Source of the DNA: a virus
Lineage: Duplodnaviria > Heunggongvirae > Uroviricota > Caudoviricetes
Virus record (IMG/VR): IMGVR_UViG_2875722834_000005
Coordinates: 1 to 49,359 of that record
Length of the DNA: 49,359 nucleotides
Reading direction: 5' to 3' (one strand)
The first letter of the stretch is position 1, and each line of letters starts with the position of its first letter. Position numbers and translations under genes: made by a program. The notes beneath the pieces are model-generated. The model was not told the origin of the DNA. It was given only the letters and a program-made list of their open reading frames with translations, and made no database searches. Below, piece by piece: positions 2,826 to 40,014 of the stretch.

Positions 2826-4094
2826 TCAGCTCGGGCTACTGTCAGCACCACCACCTTGTTGTGCGGCTTTCAGTTTCTGGTTGAACACCGAACTTTCTGG
2901 CATTTCGAGACGCAGGTCTATCCATCGCCCGGCGGGAATATCCATCGGCTCACCTGCGACGATCATAGCGGTTTCACTGTCAAAGCGACGTTTAAAAACC
3001 GACACGATAATGGTTCCGCCCTGAGTGGATTGCGTCTCCACAAAACACAGGCGGTTGCCATTTGAATCCTGTGGGATTTCAATAGTCCAGCCGTCAGCGT
3101 GTAGCCCGACAGCGCCACGTATTTCATATACGCCAGTAGCAATTTTTTCCGCTGTAACGCCTTCCGCCTCCATATTGGTCGCGGCACAGCCAGAAAGTGA
3201 AAAATCTTCGAGAAAACCAGCAGGCATGCCTCTGTGATCATTGGTAAGTCGCACAACAGGTGAGGCTTTTTTTATAAACCCGTTTGCATCAACAGTGGTT
3301 GTCAGATTGTCCAGCAACAGACGGGTTGTTGTAACCCCCGCAGTGCCGTATCCGGACATTACACGGATGCCCCTGGTAAAATAATGCACGCTCATGAGAA
3401 ACCACGTATCGTTTGCTCCCACCCATAATGTGGGCGCACTTTGTGGAATTTCATAGAATTCACCCGTCATTGGCAATATGTTCTGTAGGGTTGCAAGACT
3501 GAATCCCCTCATTTTTGCCACGACGTTATCAATCACAGATTCACTGGTCGAATTATATTCGGATACAGGAAATCCTTTTTTCAAACCAAGCCCTTCACGT
3601 GCGCTGGCCTGGGTAGTACCGCCAGTACCGCCCTGCTTTACAGACAATGCTGTGGTCAGCCCTTCCAGACTGGTGATGTCTTTATTTACCCCTTTTTTTG
3701 CCATGCTGCCAATGGAGGGGATGCTCATGCTTACACCGTTGATGGTGACCGTGATCATCTGGTTGGCTGTAGTGCTGGCGAACGCCTCCCACGCGCCAAT
3801 ATTCTCGTCGTACTCTTTGATGAGCTGTGACATGGCCTGCGCCAGGCCGTCGACTGAGATATTGTCCGACACAAGGATTCCATACTTCTGGCCGCTCAGC
3901 GCCGGGGAAACTGCTGGCGTAACCGTCATTGACGTGGCGCTGTTCACGGATGAAATCTGAAACAGCTGCACCGGGTTAGACATCACGATAATCGTCTGGC
4001 CAGCGCGGACCTGGCTGGCGGGAGCTGTCCAGTTTGTGCCCGTCCCGGTGGCGGTATTTCCATTAATGGCGATGGTGCCGGTGTTATAAAGCAT
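2826..4094 (-). CDS. Tail fibre / receptor-binding protein
   Basis: 422 aa; N-terminal region with the QGGTGGTTQASAREGLGL motif common to tail fibre and tailspike anchors; sits at the distal end of the tail module; start taken at the second ATG, which has a GGAG RBS. Confidence 0.7.
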   Translation of the reverse strand: MLYNTGTIAINGNTATGTGTNWTAPASQVRAGQTIIVMSNPVQLFQISSVNSATSMTVTPAVSPALSGQKYGILVSDNISVDGLAQAMSQLIKEYDENIGAWEAFASTTANQMITVTINGVSMSIPSIGSMAKKGVNKDITSLEGLTTALSVKQGGTGGTTQASAREGLGLKKGFPVSEYNSTSESVIDNVVAKMRGFSLATLQNILPMTGEFYEIPQSAPTLWVGANDTWFLMSVHYFTRGIRVMSGYGTAGVTTTRLLLDNLTTTVDANGFIKKASPVVRLTNDHRGMPAGFLEDFSLSGCAATNMEAEGVTAEKIATGVYEIRGAVGLHADGWTIEIPQDSNGNRLCFVETQSTQGGTIIVSVFKRRFDSETAMIVAGEPMDIPAGRWIDLRLEMPESSVFNQKLKAAQQGGGADSSPS

Positions 4095-4111
4095 ATTTTC
4101 TCCAGGCAATA

Positions 4112-4135
4112 AAAAAACCCCGCCGGAGCGAGGTT
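4112..4135 (-). terminator. Rho-independent terminator-like hairpin with U-run between lipoprotein gene and tail fibre gene
   Basis: Minus-strand CCTCGC-TCCG-GCGGGG stem-loop followed by TTTTTTTATT. Confidence 0.5.
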
Positions 4136-4154
4136 TATGTTTAAGCGTAGTGGG

Positions 4155-4388
4155 TTATTTGCAGGTTGTTTCGGTAAATGTATTCGCACTTACCCAGCGC
4201 CAGCTGAAAGGATATCCAGCCCGGTACTGCGTCTGGTTGTTTTGTTTACGCACACCGTAAATCTGAACCGTAGTTTCCTGACCGCCAACGATTGCAGTGC
4301 CGCTGCAAACTGGTTCCTGTTTCTCAATTACGCCAGCGCATCCTGTAAGCATGACAGCGCCTGCCATGCAGATAATCAGTTTTCTCAT
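4155..4388 (-). CDS. Small lipoprotein, possibly Cor-type superinfection-exclusion protein
   Basis: 77 aa with signal peptide and lipobox LTGC; located between the tip-fibre J gene and the tail fibre gene, as cor is in phi80/N15-type phages. Confidence 0.55.
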   Translation of the reverse strand: MRKLIICMAGAVMLTGCAGVIEKQEPVCSGTAIVGGQETTVQIYGVRKQNNQTQYRAGYPFSWRWVSANTFTETTCK

Positions 4389-4499
4389 TTTGATAGTATC
4401 CAGAGGAATTCAGTATCTTAGACGATACCAATACAATTCTGGTGGGTATAATTGATTGGATAGATCAATATTATGTTATTGATCGCTAAAAACGATCAA

Positions 4500-5174
4500 T
4501 CAATCATAGGCCGCTGTATTTATGGCGGTTAATGAAATGCCAGTATTCGTTCCCCCTCCAGGTGAACCTGCCCCAGTGGAGGTCCCCCCTGCGTTTATCC
4601 TCGTATTGGCCCCGTCAAACCTGCATGAAGAATAAGCATTTATCGTGTAGATAGTCGGAGGCTGGGTTGAATTATTCACAATGATGGTCTGACCCAACTG
4701 AGCAGGTGCAACGGCCCATGACCCGCTCAGCGTCTGGTCAATATTTATCCCGCCGTTTGCACCAGGCGTGCCAACCGTCTGCAGGTCTGATAGCACACGG
4801 GACTCATTAGTTAACACAAGCTTTCCGCTCGCATCCCATATTGCCAAACCCCATTTCGGTAATATCTGCGGGAATATGGCAAAAACGTACGCCGTTAAAG
4901 TGAAACTTTGGTTGTAGGGATTAACACCAGCAACATACACATTACCGCCGTTCCTGTAAGACATAACCGGAGTGGGCTGTGCTGTATTGGTGGTTTTGAT
5001 AAAAACCATCACTGGGTAATCAGCGTTTAAAGCGATATTTTGAGCAACCTGCTGAGAACTGCCATTCGCGGATGAATTGAAGGTATACTTCCCGTAAAGA
5101 CAGAAAGGCGTTGATTGTGGCGTTACAAAGGGATTCCCGTTATCCATTAATATCATCGCGCCAAATTCGGCCAT
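4500..5174 (-). CDS. Hypothetical tail-region protein (224 aa)
   Basis: ORF immediately downstream of J-like gene; Gly/Asn/Thr-rich; no recognised family. Confidence 0.5.
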   Translation of the reverse strand: MAEFGAMILMDNGNPFVTPQSTPFCLYGKYTFNSSANGSSQQVAQNIALNADYPVMVFIKTTNTAQPTPVMSYRNGGNVYVAGVNPYNQSFTLTAYVFAIFPQILPKWGLAIWDASGKLVLTNESRVLSDLQTVGTPGANGGINIDQTLSGSWAVAPAQLGQTIIVNNSTQPPTIYTINAYSSCRFDGANTRINAGGTSTGAGSPGGGTNTGISLTAINTAAYD

Positions 5175-33694: not shown

Positions 33695-34056
33695 GATGAT
33701 GCTCCTTCTTGATATTTTTCGAACCAGAACACCACTGGGTCAGATTTCATTTCAACCAATCCCATGCGAACCAGTGCTTTTCCTTTCCCGGACACAAGGA
33801 ATTCACGACGACCATCACCGATAATTCGCCGGTAATCTTCCAGGCTACTGCAATGCTTGTGCAGATTGCATGGGTGGCATGCTGGAACCATGTTTGATAT
33901 ATCGTCACGTTCCTGGTGAAGCATATTCCCATCAAAACGAATGACAGGCTTAACGTGGTCGGCATGCCACTTATCACCAAGCTCGCACCCGCAATAAGCA
34001 CAGCGACCGCCAAACTTCATGCGTAGCTCTGCGCGTTGTTTTTTCGTCAGCGCCAT
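33691..34056 (-). CDS. HNH endonuclease
   Basis: CAYCGC..HADH..N..CHPCN motif set. Confidence 0.75.
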   Translation of the reverse strand: MALTKKQRAELRMKFGGRCAYCGCELGDKWHADHVKPVIRFDGNMLHQERDDISNMVPACHPCNLHKHCSSLEDYRRIIGDGRREFLVSGKGKALVRMGLVEMKSDPVVFWFEKYQEGASS

Positions 34057-34057
34057 C

Positions 34058-34513
34058 TCACTCCCCCTTCACGCCAATGCCAGCGTCGCGGTCTAAACGC
34101 TCAATTTCCGCCAAAATAAGTGCCCCTGCTTTTACCAGGTTGCGACGACGGGTTTTAGGTTTCCACCAGGACGCATCCCACGGCCATCCCCACGGCTTGC
34201 CACCATTGCGGTTTACTGTTCCGGTTTCGTTGATGTAGCAAACCGCCGCCATTGCTAGTTCGCCGTTGCAGTGCTCGTCGTCATGCTCTGGCGTCCATCC
34301 CTCAATGGTTTTCTGCCGCTGGCGTTCGGCTACCACATCAAGAATTGCGGGATTGAATGCGCCCCCCTCAAGTTCTGCTATGCGCTTCTCTGCGGCTTCC
34401 AGCTCATCCAGCAGCGCCAGTAAATCGCGAGTTGGTACCATGAAGTTCGGCATGAAGTTATCTTTTGCCTTTTCTGCTGTTAGGCGCAGCGCCTGTTTGT
34501 CGATGTTGCTCAT
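34058..34513 (-). CDS. Hypothetical nin-region protein (151 aa)
   Basis: ORF in operon context; acidic EHDDEH cluster; family unassigned. Confidence 0.5.
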   Translation of the reverse strand: MSNIDKQALRLTAEKAKDNFMPNFMVPTRDLLALLDELEAAEKRIAELEGGAFNPAILDVVAERQRQKTIEGWTPEHDDEHCNGELAMAAVCYINETGTVNRNGGKPWGWPWDASWWKPKTRRRNLVKAGALILAEIERLDRDAGIGVKGE

Positions 34514-35016
34514 TGCGCGTCCCCCTTGCGAATCTGGGCGGCGATGTCTTCGAGTACACCATCAGCGAACGAGCGATCGAAATCGCCTTCCGGCGCATCA
34601 TCCATAAACTCTGTGGAGGTCAGTATCATTCGTGCGATGTCCGCAGCGTTCTTCGCTGTGTCTTCGATAAACCCAGCCTCCCATGCAGCCAGCATTCGGT
34701 TGGCAACAAAGTGAGCGCCTTCCTTGTGGGCTTGCGCCCGCACTTCAGCCAGGAAAGCCTGGTACGCAGGAATCTGCAGCACAGCCAGAGCTCCGATAAT
34801 CTTCTGTACTTCTGGATGGCATTGATCGTAATGAGCATCGGTGATGAACACCGCGTCATTGTGAATTGCTTCAATTGCACTCAACTCCGCAGCCAGCGCC
34901 GCGCACTTGGCTTCAACCACGTTAAGGAGAGTCGTAACTTCTGCCGGTGACATGTGCTCACCACAATCGGCATTCATCCTGGCGCTTTTAATCAGATCTT
35001 CGTATTTATTGCTCAT
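34510..35016 (-). CDS. Hypothetical nin-region protein (168 aa)
   Basis: Start set at MSNKYEDL with GGGAGGG RBS; upstream in-frame extension overlaps the neighbouring gene. Confidence 0.5.
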   Translation of the reverse strand: MSNKYEDLIKSARMNADCGEHMSPAEVTTLLNVVEAKCAALAAELSAIEAIHNDAVFITDAHYDQCHPEVQKIIGALAVLQIPAYQAFLAEVRAQAHKEGAHFVANRMLAAWEAGFIEDTAKNAADIARMILTSTEFMDDAPEGDFDRSFADGVLEDIAAQIRKGDAQ

Positions 35017-35312
35017 ACCCCTGCCCTCCCCCAAACCATCAATACCCTTCTCATCGCCGGACTGTTGCGGCACTCCTGAAATATTCCGTTGGTGCAGCTG
35101 CGCGCGGTACCAGCCTGCTCTTCCGGCGTAGCCAGGCGATAAGTCACCGTTCGCCAGACCTTGCTCACCCGGATAATTTTTCGAGACTTTTCCAGATCGA
35201 TAGCGTTCTTCGTGATGCAGTTGATGGTCATGCCGCACTCTGTGGCCACATCCTTCGCTGTGAAGGTCCGGTGCGTTTCGAGATAACGCAGAATTGCCTG
35301 TTTGCCTTTCAT
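35013..35312 (-). CDS. Small helix-turn-helix protein (ren position)
   Basis: Start overlaps P stop and stop overlaps next start; HTH-like AKDVATECGMTINCITKNA. Confidence 0.45.
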   Translation of the reverse strand: MKGKQAILRYLETHRTFTAKDVATECGMTINCITKNAIDLEKSRKIIRVSKVWRTVTYRLATPEEQAGTARSCTNGIFQECRNSPAMRRVLMVWGRAGV

Positions 35313-36085
35313 CGAATAAGACCCCGTTCAACGCCCCTGCGGTACTCTTCACATAACCATTGCGCCGGTGTTAGCGCGCCCAGTGATGCGGCATTTGGCA
35401 TGCAGCCAAAGCTTTTCCCTTCAGGGTGATAGCCAGTTCTGCGGCTCTCGTGAGTCGTGGGGATCACCTCTTCGTGATACTCAAGCGCGACTACCGGGGC
35501 AGGAATTTGCTCACCTGATGCCACCTTCAAAGCCCATTCTTCAAGCTTTTTGGCTGCGTACTTTTCGGTCTCGACTTCGCTGAGCTGGCGCTGGTACATT
35601 GCCCGGCGGGTGTCGGTCACCACCCAATACATGACCGGGTGCGTCCATGGGAAGTTTTCAGCGCCACCAACATGAACGCCCTTCTCGCGGCTGTAGCGGT
35701 GAAACTCGTTCATCACATCCACGATACCCACGCCCAGCACTGAGTTGCTGTCTTTGCACCACTTTATGAATTGCCCCGGCGACGGCCAGAACGGGGATGC
35801 GCTTGCCCTGGCATGGCGGACACCTGCCGATAACTGCTCTCTGGTTCGAATTCCGTTCTCAGAGAACGCCGCGATCCACTGGCGCTTTGCCGTCTTCTCG
35901 TCAGCGTCGGTTTTGAGGTTGGTCTGTGATGCCGCCGGGAATATCTGTTTCAGCTGGCGAAAGAGCGAGTCGACCAGGTTCTCGGCCTCGATGTTGATAA
36001 CGTTTTTCGGATCGTAGCTGCCGGACATCCGGGCCAGCGCATCACCGTCACGGTTCTGAATTGCTGCCATCAGTTGCATTGTCAC
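35309..36085 (-). CDS. P: Replication protein P (helicase loader)
   Basis: Matches lambda P blocks (RQW..AF.ENGI; PF.PSPGQF..WC). Confidence 0.8.
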   Translation of the reverse strand: MTMQLMAAIQNRDGDALARMSGSYDPKNVINIEAENLVDSLFRQLKQIFPAASQTNLKTDADEKTAKRQWIAAFSENGIRTREQLSAGVRHARASASPFWPSPGQFIKWCKDSNSVLGVGIVDVMNEFHRYSREKGVHVGGAENFPWTHPVMYWVVTDTRRAMYQRQLSEVETEKYAAKKLEEWALKVASGEQIPAPVVALEYHEEVIPTTHESRRTGYHPEGKSFGCMPNAASLGALTPAQWLCEEYRRGVERGLIR

Positions 36086-36834
36086 AGGAAGTCCTCCCAG
36101 CCTTCACGGCTATTCCAGTGCGGGGTTTCTGGCTCACTGCGGCTGCGCTTTGATGCCAGGGGGTTAACGCGGGCGTTTCGGATCCAGACGCGGAATGCTG
36201 AATTCCAGTCAATCAGGGTTGTGCCTCGCGCTGTGTGGTAGTCACGGAAGTTGAGCAGCTCGGTTTCTATGCTGACCCCTTTCTCGGCAGCCATGGCGAT
36301 ATGCTCTGCAGAGGGTTTGAATTGAGCGGGAAAAGGAATTCCACTGCCAGTCGGCAGGCCCATTCTTGTCTTCGCTGCTTCGCTCATAAATCCTTCGCGC
36401 CCAGAGAGAGAGTTAGGTTCATTGACTGGTTCAAAAGAGTGACTGATTCTGGGTGCAGCTCCTGCACTACCCCCTAGTGAATCTCCTGCACTAGGTAGTG
36501 AATCTCCTGCACTAGGTAGTGAATCTCCTGCACTAGGTAGTGAATCTCCTGCACTAGGTAGTGAATCTCCTGCACTAGGCAAGGTGAGGATGTAGATGTT
36601 TGTAGAATTGCCTTTCGGCCCCTTCCTGAAGACTTTTTTCAGCAATCCTGACTGGCAAAGATCATCAATGTGGCTCATGACTGAACGCTTGCTGATTTCG
36701 CACTGGTCAGCGATGTATTGATAGCTAGGCCAGCACTCACCCTGATCGCTGGCATTGTCAGCAAGCTTCAGGAGAACGAGCTTACGTAATGGGTTGCCGA
36801 CCTTAATTTGCATGGCTTTCACCATTAACATCAT
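36082..36834 (-). CDS. O: Replication initiator O-like protein (HTH N-domain, iteron-encoded linker)
   Basis: Position between cII and P; HTH N-terminus; contains 21-bp iterons; start approximate. Confidence 0.7.
36459..36580. repeat. Origin-type iterons: 21-bp direct repeat CTCCTGCACTAGGTAGTGAAT, 4 perfect plus 2 imperfect copies, inside the O-like gene
   Basis: Seen directly; encodes (LPSAGDS)5; analogous to ori-lambda iterons within O. Confidence 0.7.
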
Positions 36835-37012
36835 GCTCACTATGAGTTCTCCTGTTCTGCTTGAAGATGATTTCCACACACACATACACGCACTCATCAC
36901 AGATACATGCGCCATCTCCTGTGATGATCGTTGCAACGTCGTTATTGGTTTTCCCGCAAAACGAGCATTTGTGAGTGGGATGTGGGTTTGCTTTTCCTGA
37001 CTGGTTTGGCAT
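36803..37012 (-). CDS. Small protein with ClpX-type C4 zinc-binding domain
   Basis: [29 protein letters not shown] aligns with the ClpX N-terminal zinc-binding domain (CSFCGK..ICDECV); lies between cII and O. Confidence 0.55.
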
Positions 37013-37033
37013 AATTAACCCCGCAAATAGTTG

Positions 37034-37333
37034 TTAAAAATCCATCGTTATTTGGTCTGATCGCTCGGTTGCCGCCGGGCGATTTTTCTTTGTGAGCACC
37101 GCAGCTACTTCTCTTGCCAGCCGCGCCATATCGTCATCAACGACACCCCATTCCAGAACTGCCAGTAGCATCGACAGTTTAGGCAGCATGCTTTCCTTCC
37201 AGCGGGTAATACCCGACTTATCCATCCCCAATGCCTTTGCAACGTTAGAGGCACCGCGAATAGCAATCTGATTCAGGATCCAGGACTCAATTTTTCGAGC
37301 CTGGGCTTTGTTTCGGGTAGTTGTGTTTTCCAT
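37034..37333 (-). CDS. cII: Transcriptional activator CII
   Basis: Near-identical core to lambda CII (SMLLAVLEWGVVDDDMARLAR). Confidence 0.9.
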   Translation of the reverse strand: MENTTTRNKAQARKIESWILNQIAIRGASNVAKALGMDKSGITRWKESMLPKLSMLLAVLEWGVVDDDMARLAREVAAVLTKKNRPAATERSDQITMDF

Positions 37334-37362
37334 TAGTTAAAATCCTTAATAAGTTGTTGAGT

Positions 37363-37412
37363 CGGCTGACGAATCAGCCGAGTAAATTTGGGTTCCATGT
37401 TGTTAAAGAGCG
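37363..37412 (-). promoter_or_regulatory. nutR-like element: boxA CGCTCTTTAACAA plus downstream 7-bp stem hairpin
   Basis: boxA consensus read on the minus strand at 37400-37412, 8 nt after cro stop; hairpin CGGCTGA-TTCG-TCAGCCG at 37363-37380. Confidence 0.45.
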
Positions 37413-37419
37413 GTAGTAC

Positions 37420-37608
37420 TTACGGGGTTTTGCTGTGCGGGAAAGGCTTGATTTCTTCAGCCTTGATTTTCCCGTCGGGCAGTCGGTTGATAAAAATCTG
37501 ACGCCCAACCCTAATTGCCTTGCTGATTGCCGTCTGGTGTACACCGATAGCGTCAGCTGCTTTGGCCTGACCTACCTCGCCAACAAACTCAGCTAAAGAA
37601 ATCTTCAT
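37420..37608 (-). CDS. cro: Cro repressor
   Basis: 62 aa; GQAKAADAIGVHQTAISKAI matches the lambda Cro HTH; KPFP tail. Confidence 0.85.
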   Translation of the reverse strand: MKISLAEFVGEVGQAKAADAIGVHQTAISKAIRVGRQIFINRLPDGKIKAEEIKPFPHSKTP

Positions 37609-37638
37609 GTGGTTGCTCCTTTGAGTGCATAACCAAAC

Positions 37639-37677
37639 AATACCAGAAGTATTACATAAAGCAATACCTGCGGTATT
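37639..37677. promoter_or_regulatory. OR operators (two clear AATAC-N5-GTATT sites) within the PR/PRM region
   Basis: AATACCAGAAGTATT (37639-37653) and AATACCTGCGGTATT (37663-37677) between cro and cI starts. Confidence 0.6.
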
Positions 37678-37711
37678 TTTAAAATATGAGCTTTGGTATT
37701 AATATCTGATA

Positions 37712-38422
37712 ATGGAAAAGAAAAAGATTCTCACCCCCGCTCAAGTGGCTGATTCACAGCGTTTAAAAGCCCTTTACGAAGCGAAGAAAAAAGAACTGGG
37801 TATTACTCAGCAATCCATTGCGGACGCGCTGGACATTTCTCAGGGTGCCGTCGGCCATTACCTCAATGGAAGGAATGCCTTAAATACAGCGGTAGCATCG
37901 GTCTTTGCCAGGCTTCTTGGGGTTAGTGTCTCTGATTTCAGCCCGTCACTTGCGAAGGATATCTCTGATATGAGCTCGGTGGCGTCGGAAAATACTTCTT
38001 TCGCAGGGCATTATTCACCTGGCTCAAAATATCCGGTGATTAGCAAAGTTCAGGCGGGCGCCTGGTGTGAAGCTGTTGAGCCGTACACCCTTAAAGATAT
38101 CGACCTTTGGCTTGAATCAGATGCTCACATTCAGGGGGAGGCGTTCTGGCTGCAGGTTGATGGTGACTCAATGACGGCGCCAGCTGGCTTGAGCATTCCT
38201 GAAGGAACCTTTGTCCTCTTCGATACTGGTCGGGAGGCGATCAACGGAAGCTTGGTAATAGCAAAGCTATCCGATTCTAACGAGGCGACTTTTAAGAAGC
38301 TGGTGATCGATGGTGGGCAGAAGTACCTGAAGGGCCTTAACCCGCAATGGCCACTCGTGCCGATTAATGGTAACTGCCGTATCATTGGTGTAGCTGTAGA
38401 GACGAAGCTGCGGCTGGTCTGA
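37712..38422 (+). CDS. cI: CI repressor (HTH N-domain, S24 self-cleaving C-domain)
   Basis: Lambda CI-like blocks (KKELGITQQSIAD; FSPS; VQAG; GDSM; TFKKL); no leader before ATG, as for PRM transcripts. Confidence 0.9.
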   Translation: MEKKKILTPAQVADSQRLKALYEAKKKELGITQQSIADALDISQGAVGHYLNGRNALNTAVASVFARLLGVSVSDFSPSLAKDISDMSSVASENTSFAGHYSPGSKYPVISKVQAGAWCEAVEPYTLKDIDLWLESDAHIQGEAFWLQVDGDSMTAPAGLSIPEGTFVLFDTGREAINGSLVIAKLSDSNEATFKKLVIDGGQKYLKGLNPQWPLVPINGNCRIIGVAVETKLRLV

Positions 38423-38571
38423 TCGGCAAGGTGCTCTGGTCGGCGCATAGCTGGTGAAAAAATTATTTAATGCAGTGTATTAGCTGATTGTAACCCCATG
38501 TAACATCTTGCCGTCACCATTTCGGTGGTTAGATTTTTAATAAAAAAAACAAATGTATAGCAAGGTTTTTT

Positions 38572-39051
38572 ATGGATAAAATTAATTACCCACCCCTGTT
38601 TGAGCCACGGTTCCATGACATGGATGAAGCTGGATTAAAATCGTATTGTGTCGATTGCTTTCCTTCATCATCCAGGCGAGGCATGCTATACTGTAATTTT
38701 ATACAGCTACTCGAATCTATTCGAGAATTATCTGCTCAATATGGCTGTTTTACAGAAATATGGGTTGATGGTTCATACACCACGTCTAAACCAGAGCCTG
38801 ATGATATTGATATTTTGTTGGTATGTGACTATAGCAAGATAAACTCAATACCTGTCATGCTTCGGGGCCGCGTCGATAATTTGCTTGACCGAAACTACAT
38901 CAAACAAAACTACAAAATTGATGTCCTACTACTCATGAAGAATTTAGATGACCCTAACTATGATTATGAGTACTGGCGTAGCTACTGGCGCGGTTGGTTT
39001 GGTTTTGATCGCAGTGAAAACCCGAAAGGGTTAGTGAGGATTTTTTTATGA
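38572..39051 (+). CDS. Minimal nucleotidyltransferase-fold protein (159 aa), first gene of operon in rexAB-equivalent position
   Basis: GS-x8-DDIDILLV with downstream KIDV fits the Pol-beta NTase hG[GS]..DxD..D signature; AT-rich; downstream of cI. Confidence 0.55.
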   Translation: MDKINYPPLFEPRFHDMDEAGLKSYCVDCFPSSSRRGMLYCNFIQLLESIRELSAQYGCFTEIWVDGSYTTSKPEPDDIDILLVCDYSKINSIPVMLRGRVDNLLDRNYIKQNYKIDVLLLMKNLDDPNYDYEYWRSYWRGWFGFDRSENPKGLVRIFL

Positions 39052-39980
39052 ATGATAAATCAATGTTTAAAAATTGCGATAAACGCATTGATTTCATTCA
39101 AAAAGAAGTCGATGCAATGAAGCAAAACAAAACCAGGTCCTTTGCTGACATGCTTCTTTATCGCTCCATGGATTCTCATCTGAGCGATTTGAAGGCCGAA
39201 AAATTAAAGCAAGATAGTCGGCACCCACTTATCGATTTTTTTGAGCTGCGGCTGAAAGGCTCTGAGGTTGACTTTGGCTCTATTCCTTTAGAGCTGCTTG
39301 GGGCTATTTCAACAAATCTTGCAGCGCTAATACAAAGAGCAACACACAAAATTGCCTCAGGCAAGGACTCAAAAAAAGTTCCCTACGACGTGAAAAGCTC
39401 CTTAAACCTCAGGCTGGCTGATTTATCCCCTGGGTCTACAAAATTGGGCGTCACCTTCTCTACAGGAATAGCAGAATTAGTAGAAACAGTACCCAGCAAG
39501 GCTGTAAAAGGCATATTCGATTTGTTGTTAAGCGATGACGACAACAACTTCATGAATCACGTCGCTGAAATTGGATACAATTCCACTGTAAGCCTTAAGA
39601 GAATCGTAGAGGAATGTGATAAACACAACTTAACATTTGATGCAAGTTGGACCGGTCCATTTAGTAATGGCACCAAGGTGGCAACTATTGACTCCAATAA
39701 AATTAAGTACTTGGTGAGTAGACTTACATCAACCATTTCATCCCCTCCCATTACTGAAACGGTTACAGGCGAACTGGTCGTTCTATCCAAATATGGGAAG
39801 CTGGAGCTTGATGTTGGTGGTGAACATTTAAAGGCTTCCTATCCGATTGAAATGCTAGATTTAATACAAAAAAAACACAAGGTCGGACAGATTGTTTCTC
39901 TTTTAGTGGAGACTACTGAGATTCACAATGATCGCATAGGTCTGTACCGTAAAAACCATCTTGTTAAATCGGTTCTTTAA
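39048..39980 (+). CDS. Hypothetical 310-aa partner protein, translationally coupled to the NTase-fold gene
   Basis: Start ATG overlaps upstream TGA (ATGA); no recognisable motifs; followed by a strong terminator. Confidence 0.55.
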   Translation: MNDKSMFKNCDKRIDFIQKEVDAMKQNKTRSFADMLLYRSMDSHLSDLKAEKLKQDSRHPLIDFFELRLKGSEVDFGSIPLELLGAISTNLAALIQRATHKIASGKDSKKVPYDVKSSLNLRLADLSPGSTKLGVTFSTGIAELVETVPSKAVKGIFDLLLSDDDNNFMNHVAEIGYNSTVSLKRIVEECDKHNLTFDASWTGPFSNGTKVATIDSNKIKYLVSRLTSTISSPPITETVTGELVVLSKYGKLELDVGGEHLKASYPIEMLDLIQKKHKVGQIVSLLVETTEIHNDRIGLYRKNHLVKSVL

Positions 39981-39987
39981 TATCTCA

Positions 39988-40014
39988 CCCGGCCACCGCG
40001 CCGGGTTTTTATTT
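39988..40014 (+). terminator. Rho-independent terminator after the two-gene operon
   Basis: CCCGGC-CACCGC-GCCGGG followed by TTTTTATTT. Confidence 0.65.

Follow-up and report, generated by a model that had tools for sequence, protein, structure and literature searches.

A small gene for a stand-alone ClpX-type zinc-binding domain (ZBD) is situated at the head of the replication operon of the prophage analysed here. By profile, metal ligands and fold, its 69-aa product has a bona fide domain of the ClpX ZBD type, with a resemblance that goes far beyond chance. It is proposed, with slightly less than even confidence, that the product is a competitor of the ClpX ZBDs that selectively damps ZBD-dependent degradation by ClpXP. 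The window (the whole stretch of viral DNA analysed, 49,359 nt) is a lambdoid prophage of mosaic make-up, with relationships to phi80, HK225 and mEpX1, and its closest protein relatives are from Citrobacter. The relevant features are as follows.

35309-36085, minus strand: lambda P-like helicase loader (Pfam Phage_lambda_P, E=9e-57)
36082-36840, minus strand: O-like replication initiator (HTH_36/DnaD_N/DnaT-like), with a GTG start at 36840 or an ATG start at 36834 (Pfam and PHROG 'replication initiation O-like')
36475-36579: five perfect 21-bp tandem repeats within the O-like gene (TRF: period 21, 5.0 copies, 100% matches)
36803-37012, minus strand: stand-alone ClpX-ZBD-like gene (69-aa ORF; Pfam PF06689, E=1e-13; dN/dS approximately 0.1)
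36857-36970, minus strand: core of the zinc-binding domain, residues 15-52 (C16, C19, C38 and C41; beta-hairpins and helix), from Pfam, AF2/Foldseek and alignment with E. coli ClpX
37013-37024, minus strand: translation start context of the ZBD gene, a GCGGGG Shine-Dalgarno-like sequence with a 6-nt spacer before the ATG, from sequence inspection
37034-37333, minus strand: cII (Pfam Phage_CII, E=8e-35)
37420-37608, minus strand: cro
37712-38422, plus strand: cI

It is apparent from both the coordinates and the Pfam assignments that the ORF lies, as originally predicted, between cII and an O-type replication gene. No strand had been given in that prediction; the ORF is on the minus strand, the pR operon being leftward throughout in the window. 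The ORF is downstream of cII, with 21 nt between the cII stop and its start. The overlap with the 5′ end of the O-like gene, which had also been noted, amounts to 32 nt if the initiator begins at the ATG (36834) and to 38 nt if it begins at the GTG (36840); a ZBD/initiator overlap of 32 nt is found in the PGAP annotation of the homologous E. coli EC09 locus. When codons 1-56 of the ZBD gene, which lie outside the overlap with O, were compared with those of homologous loci, dN/dS values of approximately 0.09-0.13 were obtained, with synonymous sites saturated. At the DNA level, the starts of lambda O and phi80 gene 15 are homologous to the Shine-Dalgarno sequence, ATG and initial codons of the ZBD gene. 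Because of the low dN/dS at saturated dS, together with a start context homologous to that of lambda O, the 69-aa ORF is considered, on sequence grounds, to be a real gene under purifying selection.

The motif KCSFCGK...ICDECV had been proposed to represent a C4 zinc-binding domain like that of ClpX, and a profile search against the ClpX zinc-finger family had been suggested as a check. That search yielded a significant match to Pfam zf-C4_ClpX (PF06689; E=1e-13, 51.4 bits versus a gathering score of 27), in which residues 15-49 span profile positions 2-37 of 39. The pattern C-x2-C-x18-C-x2-C is present, with C16, C19, C38 and C41 aligning with C14, C17, C36 and C39 of ClpX. The profile, the four cysteine ligands and the fold described below all agree with the proposed assignment. 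Against the full-length equivalog models for the ClpX unfoldase, which include the AAA+ module (NCBIfam TIGR00382/PRK05342), the protein scored 40 bits, far under the cut-offs of 359-371, and covered just the N-terminal 50-55 or so model positions. Since only the N-terminal part of these models is matched, the product corresponds to the ZBD alone and not to ClpX. An apparent full-length ClpX, with both ZBD and AAA+ module, was seen elsewhere, on an IMG/VR viral contig of 352,754 bp (L043, positions 4001-5170).

A phmmer search of PDB sequences returned ClpX ZBD entries (1OVX and 2DS5-8) and full-length ClpX at E values of approximately 1e-8 (approximately 2e-8 for 1OVX and 2DS5), and nothing besides ClpX ZBDs at significant E values. 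An AF2 model of the 69-aa protein was built with 65 homologues; block-mean pLDDT values were 88-94 for residues 11-50, and the tails were disordered. Foldseek aligned this model with 2DS5-2DS8 at an rmsd of 0.5-0.6 Å over 37-38 residues (identity 45-49%, target TM-score 0.83-0.91). Among these matches, 2DS8 is the complex of the E. coli ZBD with the SspB tail (XB). The predicted fold of the 69-aa protein is of the treble-clef type, with beta-hairpins and a C-terminal helix. The protein is 31% identical to E. coli ClpX when aligned in full and 45-50% identical over the 36-38-residue ZBD core. Recent capture of the 5′ end of a host clpX gene was considered and rejected, given this low identity and the family's own conserved motifs.

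Those motifs were defined by comparing 81 unique family sequences with 48 bona fide ClpX sequences. The positions common to both (ClpX numbering) are C14, S15, F16, C17, G18, V24, L/I27, I28, A29, G30, G32, V33, I35, C36, C39, V/I40, C43, I46 and I/V47, and they make up the zinc site and the hydrophobic core, including the F16/I46 pocket. In ClpX, this hydrophobic side pocket serves trigger factor, SspB and RssB and partly coincides with the lambda O site (PMC7804408, from which the residue-level statements on the pocket are drawn). The family has a fixed N-tail of 15 residues, constant in length, that ends in PTHK, where ClpX has LL(K/Y). Positions conserved in ClpX are altered (L11/L12 to T/H, Q21 to N, Y34 to S/C) and, in 93% of the family each, E/D41 is replaced by F/L/Y, N44 by V and position 48 by F. 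Positions 41, 44 and 48 share one helix face, beside V40 and I47, and positions 49-53, acidic in ClpX, are basic in the family. As judged from the alignment, the family is not a plain copy of the ZBD, and it has an extra conserved hydrophobic surface. This stripe and the PTHK motif suggest a partner or an oligomeric state absent from the ClpX ZBD, and, with ClpX-conserved positions changed, the binding specificity may differ from that of ClpX.

Each zinc ligand is kept in 94-100% of the 81 sequences. At each of three ligand positions, one ligand has been lost in approximately 2-6% of family sequences (ClpX numbering: C14 to R/Y, C17 to R/A, C39 to W/Y), and in one Salmonella subgroup the loop that joins the ligand pairs is shorter by 7 residues. 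The members with one or other of these changes include L022, L025, L034, P0183, P0199, P0205, P0207, P0224, P0228 and the L028 group. Members with a lost ligand or a deleted loop may be decaying copies or zinc-independent variants.

The initiator that follows the ZBD gene gave no match to Phage_rep_O; HTH_36, DnaD_N and DnaT were matched instead, and its N-terminus is unlike the MTNTAKILNF of lambda O. By these comparisons, it is O-like only in function, as labelled by PHROG, and is no homologue of lambda O, lacking the N-terminal ClpX degron of that protein. The original prediction placed the ZBD gene beside O, and this stands insofar as the gene is immediately upstream of, and overlaps, a replication initiator; it fails insofar as that initiator is no Phage_rep_O homologue. 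The ZBD of ClpX is required for the degradation of lambda O (PMC7804408). The argument that had been built on lambda O as a classic ClpXP substrate does not carry over to this locus, since, for a neighbour that has neither homology to lambda O nor its degron, substrate status does not transfer by homology.

The 21-bp repeats within the O-like gene encode a (PSAGDSL)n stretch and are probably origin iterons, because the iterons of lambda and phi80 sit inside O and gene 15. The ORFs directly downstream of P (35013-35312, minus strand, within 34510-35352, minus strand) gave no Pfam match. This phage lacks rexAB. In the lambda rexAB slot, downstream of cI, is a two-gene cassette (38572-39051 and 39048-39980, plus strand) with matches to PDC-M63A/B, a candidate defence system in PADLOC (E=7e-40 and 7.5e-45); a DUF6932 protein is encoded by gene A.

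Profile searches identified approximately 100 family clusters at 90% identity, with lengths of 55-72 aa (longer members are upstream start extensions), from Enterobacteriaceae prophages; the genera are Citrobacter, Salmonella, Klebsiella, Enterobacter, Escherichia, Raoultella, Leclercia, Pluralibacter and Serratia. In E. coli, the family is rare as judged from DNA, the gene being found by blastn in 1 of 5,426 complete genomes. A search of genome contigs with the family profile returned nearly exclusively bona fide clpX genes of unrelated phyla, plus one Kluyvera prophage. In IMG/VR, 40 prophage or phage loci with the ZBD gene were found, and in all 40 a long ORF directly follows it.

From these 40 loci, the window and three annotated records, 19 representative loci were annotated. 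The gene upstream of the ZBD gene is cII in nine of the 19 and a YdaT-type (phi80-cII-like) gene in eight. Downstream, a long ORF either overlaps the ZBD gene or begins no more than 17 nt away in every one of the 19; it is of the HTH_36/O-like type in six, DUF1376 in four and DnaD-like (phrog_1701) in nine, and the lambda O type (Phage_rep_O) occurs in none of the 19. At least three unrelated types of replication initiator are represented among these downstream ORFs, as judged from their Pfam or PHROG matches. An E. coli prophage and a Klebsiella phage have been annotated with this arrangement, and a second Klebsiella phage has a match in the same slot, where the ORF is unannotated. The O-like N-terminal domain also occurs without the ZBD gene, after an unrelated 74-aa ORF, in E. 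coli prophages. In one such case (L125, 2404-2628, minus strand), the 74-aa ORF has the same upstream slot and a 4-nt overlap with an initiator whose O-like N-domain is closely related; the slot upstream of the initiator may hold alternative small genes. In phi80 and lambda, which lack the ZBD gene, gene 15 and O begin exactly at the start site of the ZBD ORF, and the ZBD gene looks like an insertion behind the context from which O is started in lambda-type modules.

The occurrence of several unrelated initiators after the ZBD gene, and of the O-like N-domain without it, indicates that the gene is tied to the slot heading the replication operon and not to one initiator, and argues against an O-specific partnership. 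Two more specific arrangements were rejected: an obligate partnership with this type of O, given the O-like N-domain after the unrelated 74-aa ORF, and a programmed-frameshift ZBD-O fusion as a general mechanism, since other subfamilies have a gap of 15-17 nt and no overlap.

These locus data bear directly on an alternative that is considered unlikely, namely that the product is an accessory protein of the replication module unrelated to ClpX, its treble-clef zinc domain serving as a generic protein-protein module through the hydrophobic stripe. Binding of such a protein to the initiator, to the helicase loader or to host factors of the DnaB/DnaK type would assist or time origin firing. Consistent with this role, the ZBD gene is always the first replication cistron, translationally coupled or closely spaced to the initiator, and surface residues absent in ClpX (F41, V44, F48 and PTHK) are conserved in the family. 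ZBD-like domains are, moreover, present in thousands of proteins other than ClpX (7,212 clusters at 50% identity, E≤1e-3, many with 2-18 repeats), so the fold alone does not imply a ClpX-related role. The diversity of the downstream initiators (at least three unrelated families), together with the fact that the O-like N-domain works elsewhere without the ZBD gene, makes a specific physical partner within the module unlikely, however, and the ClpX pocket residues F16 and I46 have been kept. A position that is independent of the type of partner fits a host-directed function.

Competition with the ClpX ZBDs would be such a function. Under this proposal, the ORF product would be a small zinc-binding protein, probably dimeric, that copies the N-terminal docking domain of host ClpX and is made early, its gene being the leading cistron of the replication module under pR. 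It would contend with the ZBDs of hexameric ClpX for hydrophobic peptide motifs of ZBD-dependent substrates and adaptors, with lambda-O-type and MuA-type substrates, SspB, RssB and UmuD as putative targets; in a less likely variant, it would form mixed dimers with ClpX N-domains. In both variants, ZBD-dependent ClpXP degradation would be damped and ssrA-type degradation would be left intact, and short-lived phage or host proteins would be stabilised during lytic development. We infer zinc binding, dimerisation, contact with ClpX, adaptors or substrates, and the existence of a benefiting protein; selective competition for ZBD-dependent clients is what would be expected of an early pR product that has this fold and pocket. 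The affinities of the ZBD for peptides are micromolar, so a decoy would need to be highly expressed. Precedent for the mechanism comes from free ZBD supplied in trans, which inhibits RssB-dependent degradation of sigmaS by ClpXP in a dose-dependent manner (PMC7226468, Fig. 1d), and from ClpX lacking the ZBD, which still degrades ssrA substrates (PMC7804408, PMC7226468).

The same decoy or poison biochemistry might instead benefit the phage through anti-defence or host takeover, although this is judged rather improbable. The protein would then interfere with triggers of abortive infection that depend on ClpXP (degradation of antitoxins) or stabilise regulators of the host, sigmaS among them. 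Lon is inhibited by T7 Gp4.5 and by T4 PinA, and ClpP-dependent degradation by lambda RexB. The present phage has no rexAB, a PDC-M63 pair occupying that slot, as would be compatible with such a benefit; CmdTAC defence is inactive in a deltaclpX strain (bioRxiv 10.1101/2024.02.24.581848), and degradation of sigmaS is blocked by free ZBD in vitro (PMC7226468). The antitoxin degradation by ClpXP in CmdTAC uses C-terminal Ala-Ala degrons, however (bioRxiv 10.1101/2024.02.24.581848), and, since ssrA-type degradation has no need of the ZBD (PMC7226468), a ZBD decoy would not be expected to block it. The ZBD-like protein had no PADLOC match at E≤0.01 and no anti-defence annotation.

The N-terminus of the product merits separate consideration. 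Residues 1 to approximately 10 of the family (window 36983-37012, minus strand), with the pattern M-x-x-T/Q-x-x-K/E-[VA]-N-[ILA], align without gaps with MTNTAKILNF of lambda O and MSNTAEIINF of phi80 gp15. In lambda O, the N-terminal segment serves for recognition by ClpX and is transferable (PMC7804408). The DNA that encodes these residues also overlaps a putative antisense transcription unit, of which the following parts were located.

37023-37093, plus strand: oop-like antisense RNA, inferred from a terminator scan and homology to lambda and phi80
37059-37084, plus strand: oop-like terminator hairpin and T-run, from the terminator scan

An almost identical sequence is present in lambda at the 3′ end of cII, the point of oop termination. 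By alignment, the -10 element (CATAAT, 37010-37015) includes the complement of the ZBD start codon, and the -35 element (TTGCTT, 36988-36993) lies within ZBD codons 7-9, a layout homologous to those of lambda pO/O and phi80 M3 RNA/gene 15. Rfam gave no family in 34000-40000, and a scan with the sigma-70 consensus gave no promoter in 36000-38000. The DNA alignment reveals that the N-terminal positions in common with lambda O coincide with the -10 and -35 elements of this antisense oop-type promoter. The likeness may, therefore, be a by-product of constraint at the DNA level from an embedded promoter on the opposite strand, or it may represent a retained degron.

A retained signal of this kind is the basis of a further alternative, of low probability, in which the product is a substrate or adaptor of ClpXP and not an inhibitor. 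Its lambda-O-like N-terminus would engage ClpX and its ZBD-like domain would pair with the ClpX N-domain or with a target, so that the protein would either deliver another for degradation or act as a short-lived timer. The gap-free alignment with lambda O and phi80 gp15, and the transferable nature of the lambda O signal (PMC7804408), speak for this possibility; the coincidence of the residues in common with the antisense -10 and -35 elements speaks against it, as does the fact that cargo specificity would be left to short, poorly conserved tails predicted with low confidence. It is most improbable that the ORF is a decaying or neutral passenger without current function, as the loss of a zinc ligand or part of the loop in a minority of homologues and the rarity in E. 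coli (1/5,426 complete genomes at the DNA level) might suggest, in view of a dN/dS of approximately 0.1 across saturated synonymous divergence and of approximately 100 clusters from many genera in which the ligands are each kept in 94-100% of 81 sequences and the length of the N-tail is constant.

In its fullest form, the competitor hypothesis is put forward only tentatively: a diverged copy of the ClpX docking domain, encoded by the first gene of the replication module, would be a mimic that reprogrammes ClpXP during lytic growth, turning off the ZBD-dependent branch and sparing ssrA-type degradation, and ClpX may, in addition, be gripped directly through the hydrophobic stripe and the lambda-O-like N-terminus. 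ClpXP controls lambda O turnover, Mu transposition, the SOS response (LexA fragments, UmuD'), sigmaS and several toxin-antitoxin or defence triggers. If the hypothesis is correct, the protein would be, to our knowledge, the first viral mimic of a recognition domain of an AAA+ protease, would show how temperate phages, by a natural and genetically compact inhibitor, adjust proteolysis in the host when lysis or lysogeny and replication are decided, and would make domain mimicry a further means, beside those already known, by which phages deal with host proteases. A tool for separating adaptor-dependent from adaptor-independent functions of ClpXP would be gained as well. Should the protein act with replication proteins instead, it would be a new accessory factor common to several unrelated initiator families.

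Most family members are already called 'ClpX C4-type zinc finger protein' by NCBI (PGAP), and PHROGs contains several stand-alone ZBD families, labelled 'unknown function' or 'protease'; the family had thus been correctly recognised, and the domain call is already in public annotation. Full-text literature searches yielded no functional study of a stand-alone ZBD protein from a phage or prophage, and the lone mention was of a metagenomic contig discarded for carrying the domain.

The closest known counterpart is the ZBD of E. coli ClpX itself, with which the phage protein shares the C-x2-C-x18-C-x2-C pattern, the CSFCGK and ICxxC motifs, the fold, the hydrophobic core and the F16/I46 pocket. 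The phage protein differs in standing alone, without the linker and AAA+ module; in the invariant 15-residue PTHK N-tail of its family, with T/H for L11/L12 and S/C for Y34; and in having the stripe (F/Y41, V44, F48) and basic residues in place of the acidic helix face of ClpX, on a helix predicted to be longer. The mechanism proposed for it is that of the isolated ClpX ZBD in trans, a free dimer in competition with ClpX for adaptors and substrates (PMC7226468); the isolated domain was also used by Wojtyra et al. (2003), as cited in PMC7804408. That domain is a laboratory construct of host sequence, whereas the phage protein is natural and diverged, as judged from its sequence, and its binding is proposed.

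The anti-adaptors IraD, IraM and IraP would, like the phage protein, block delivery of ZBD-dependent clients to ClpXP, with stabilisation of sigmaS, and a common docking site on RssB has been proposed for the ZBD and IraD (PMC7226468). Unlike the phage protein, the anti-adaptors have unrelated folds, are encoded by the host and are induced by stress.

Modulators of AAA+ proteases form a known class of phage proteins. Lambda RexB affects the ClpP-dependent degradation of lambda O and antitoxins, lambda CIII acts on FtsH, and T4 PinA and T7 Gp4.5 act on Lon. SPO1 Gp53 acts on the host AAA+ protease ClpC (PMC6873191). These are small early proteins that alter the specificity or activity of a host protease in favour of phage development, a likeness that is proposed for the phage ZBD; they differ from it in using adaptor-like, competitive-substrate or direct-inhibitor mechanisms. 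We know of no named phage modulator that copies the protease's own substrate- or adaptor-docking domain, and domain mimicry of ClpX would be new within this class.
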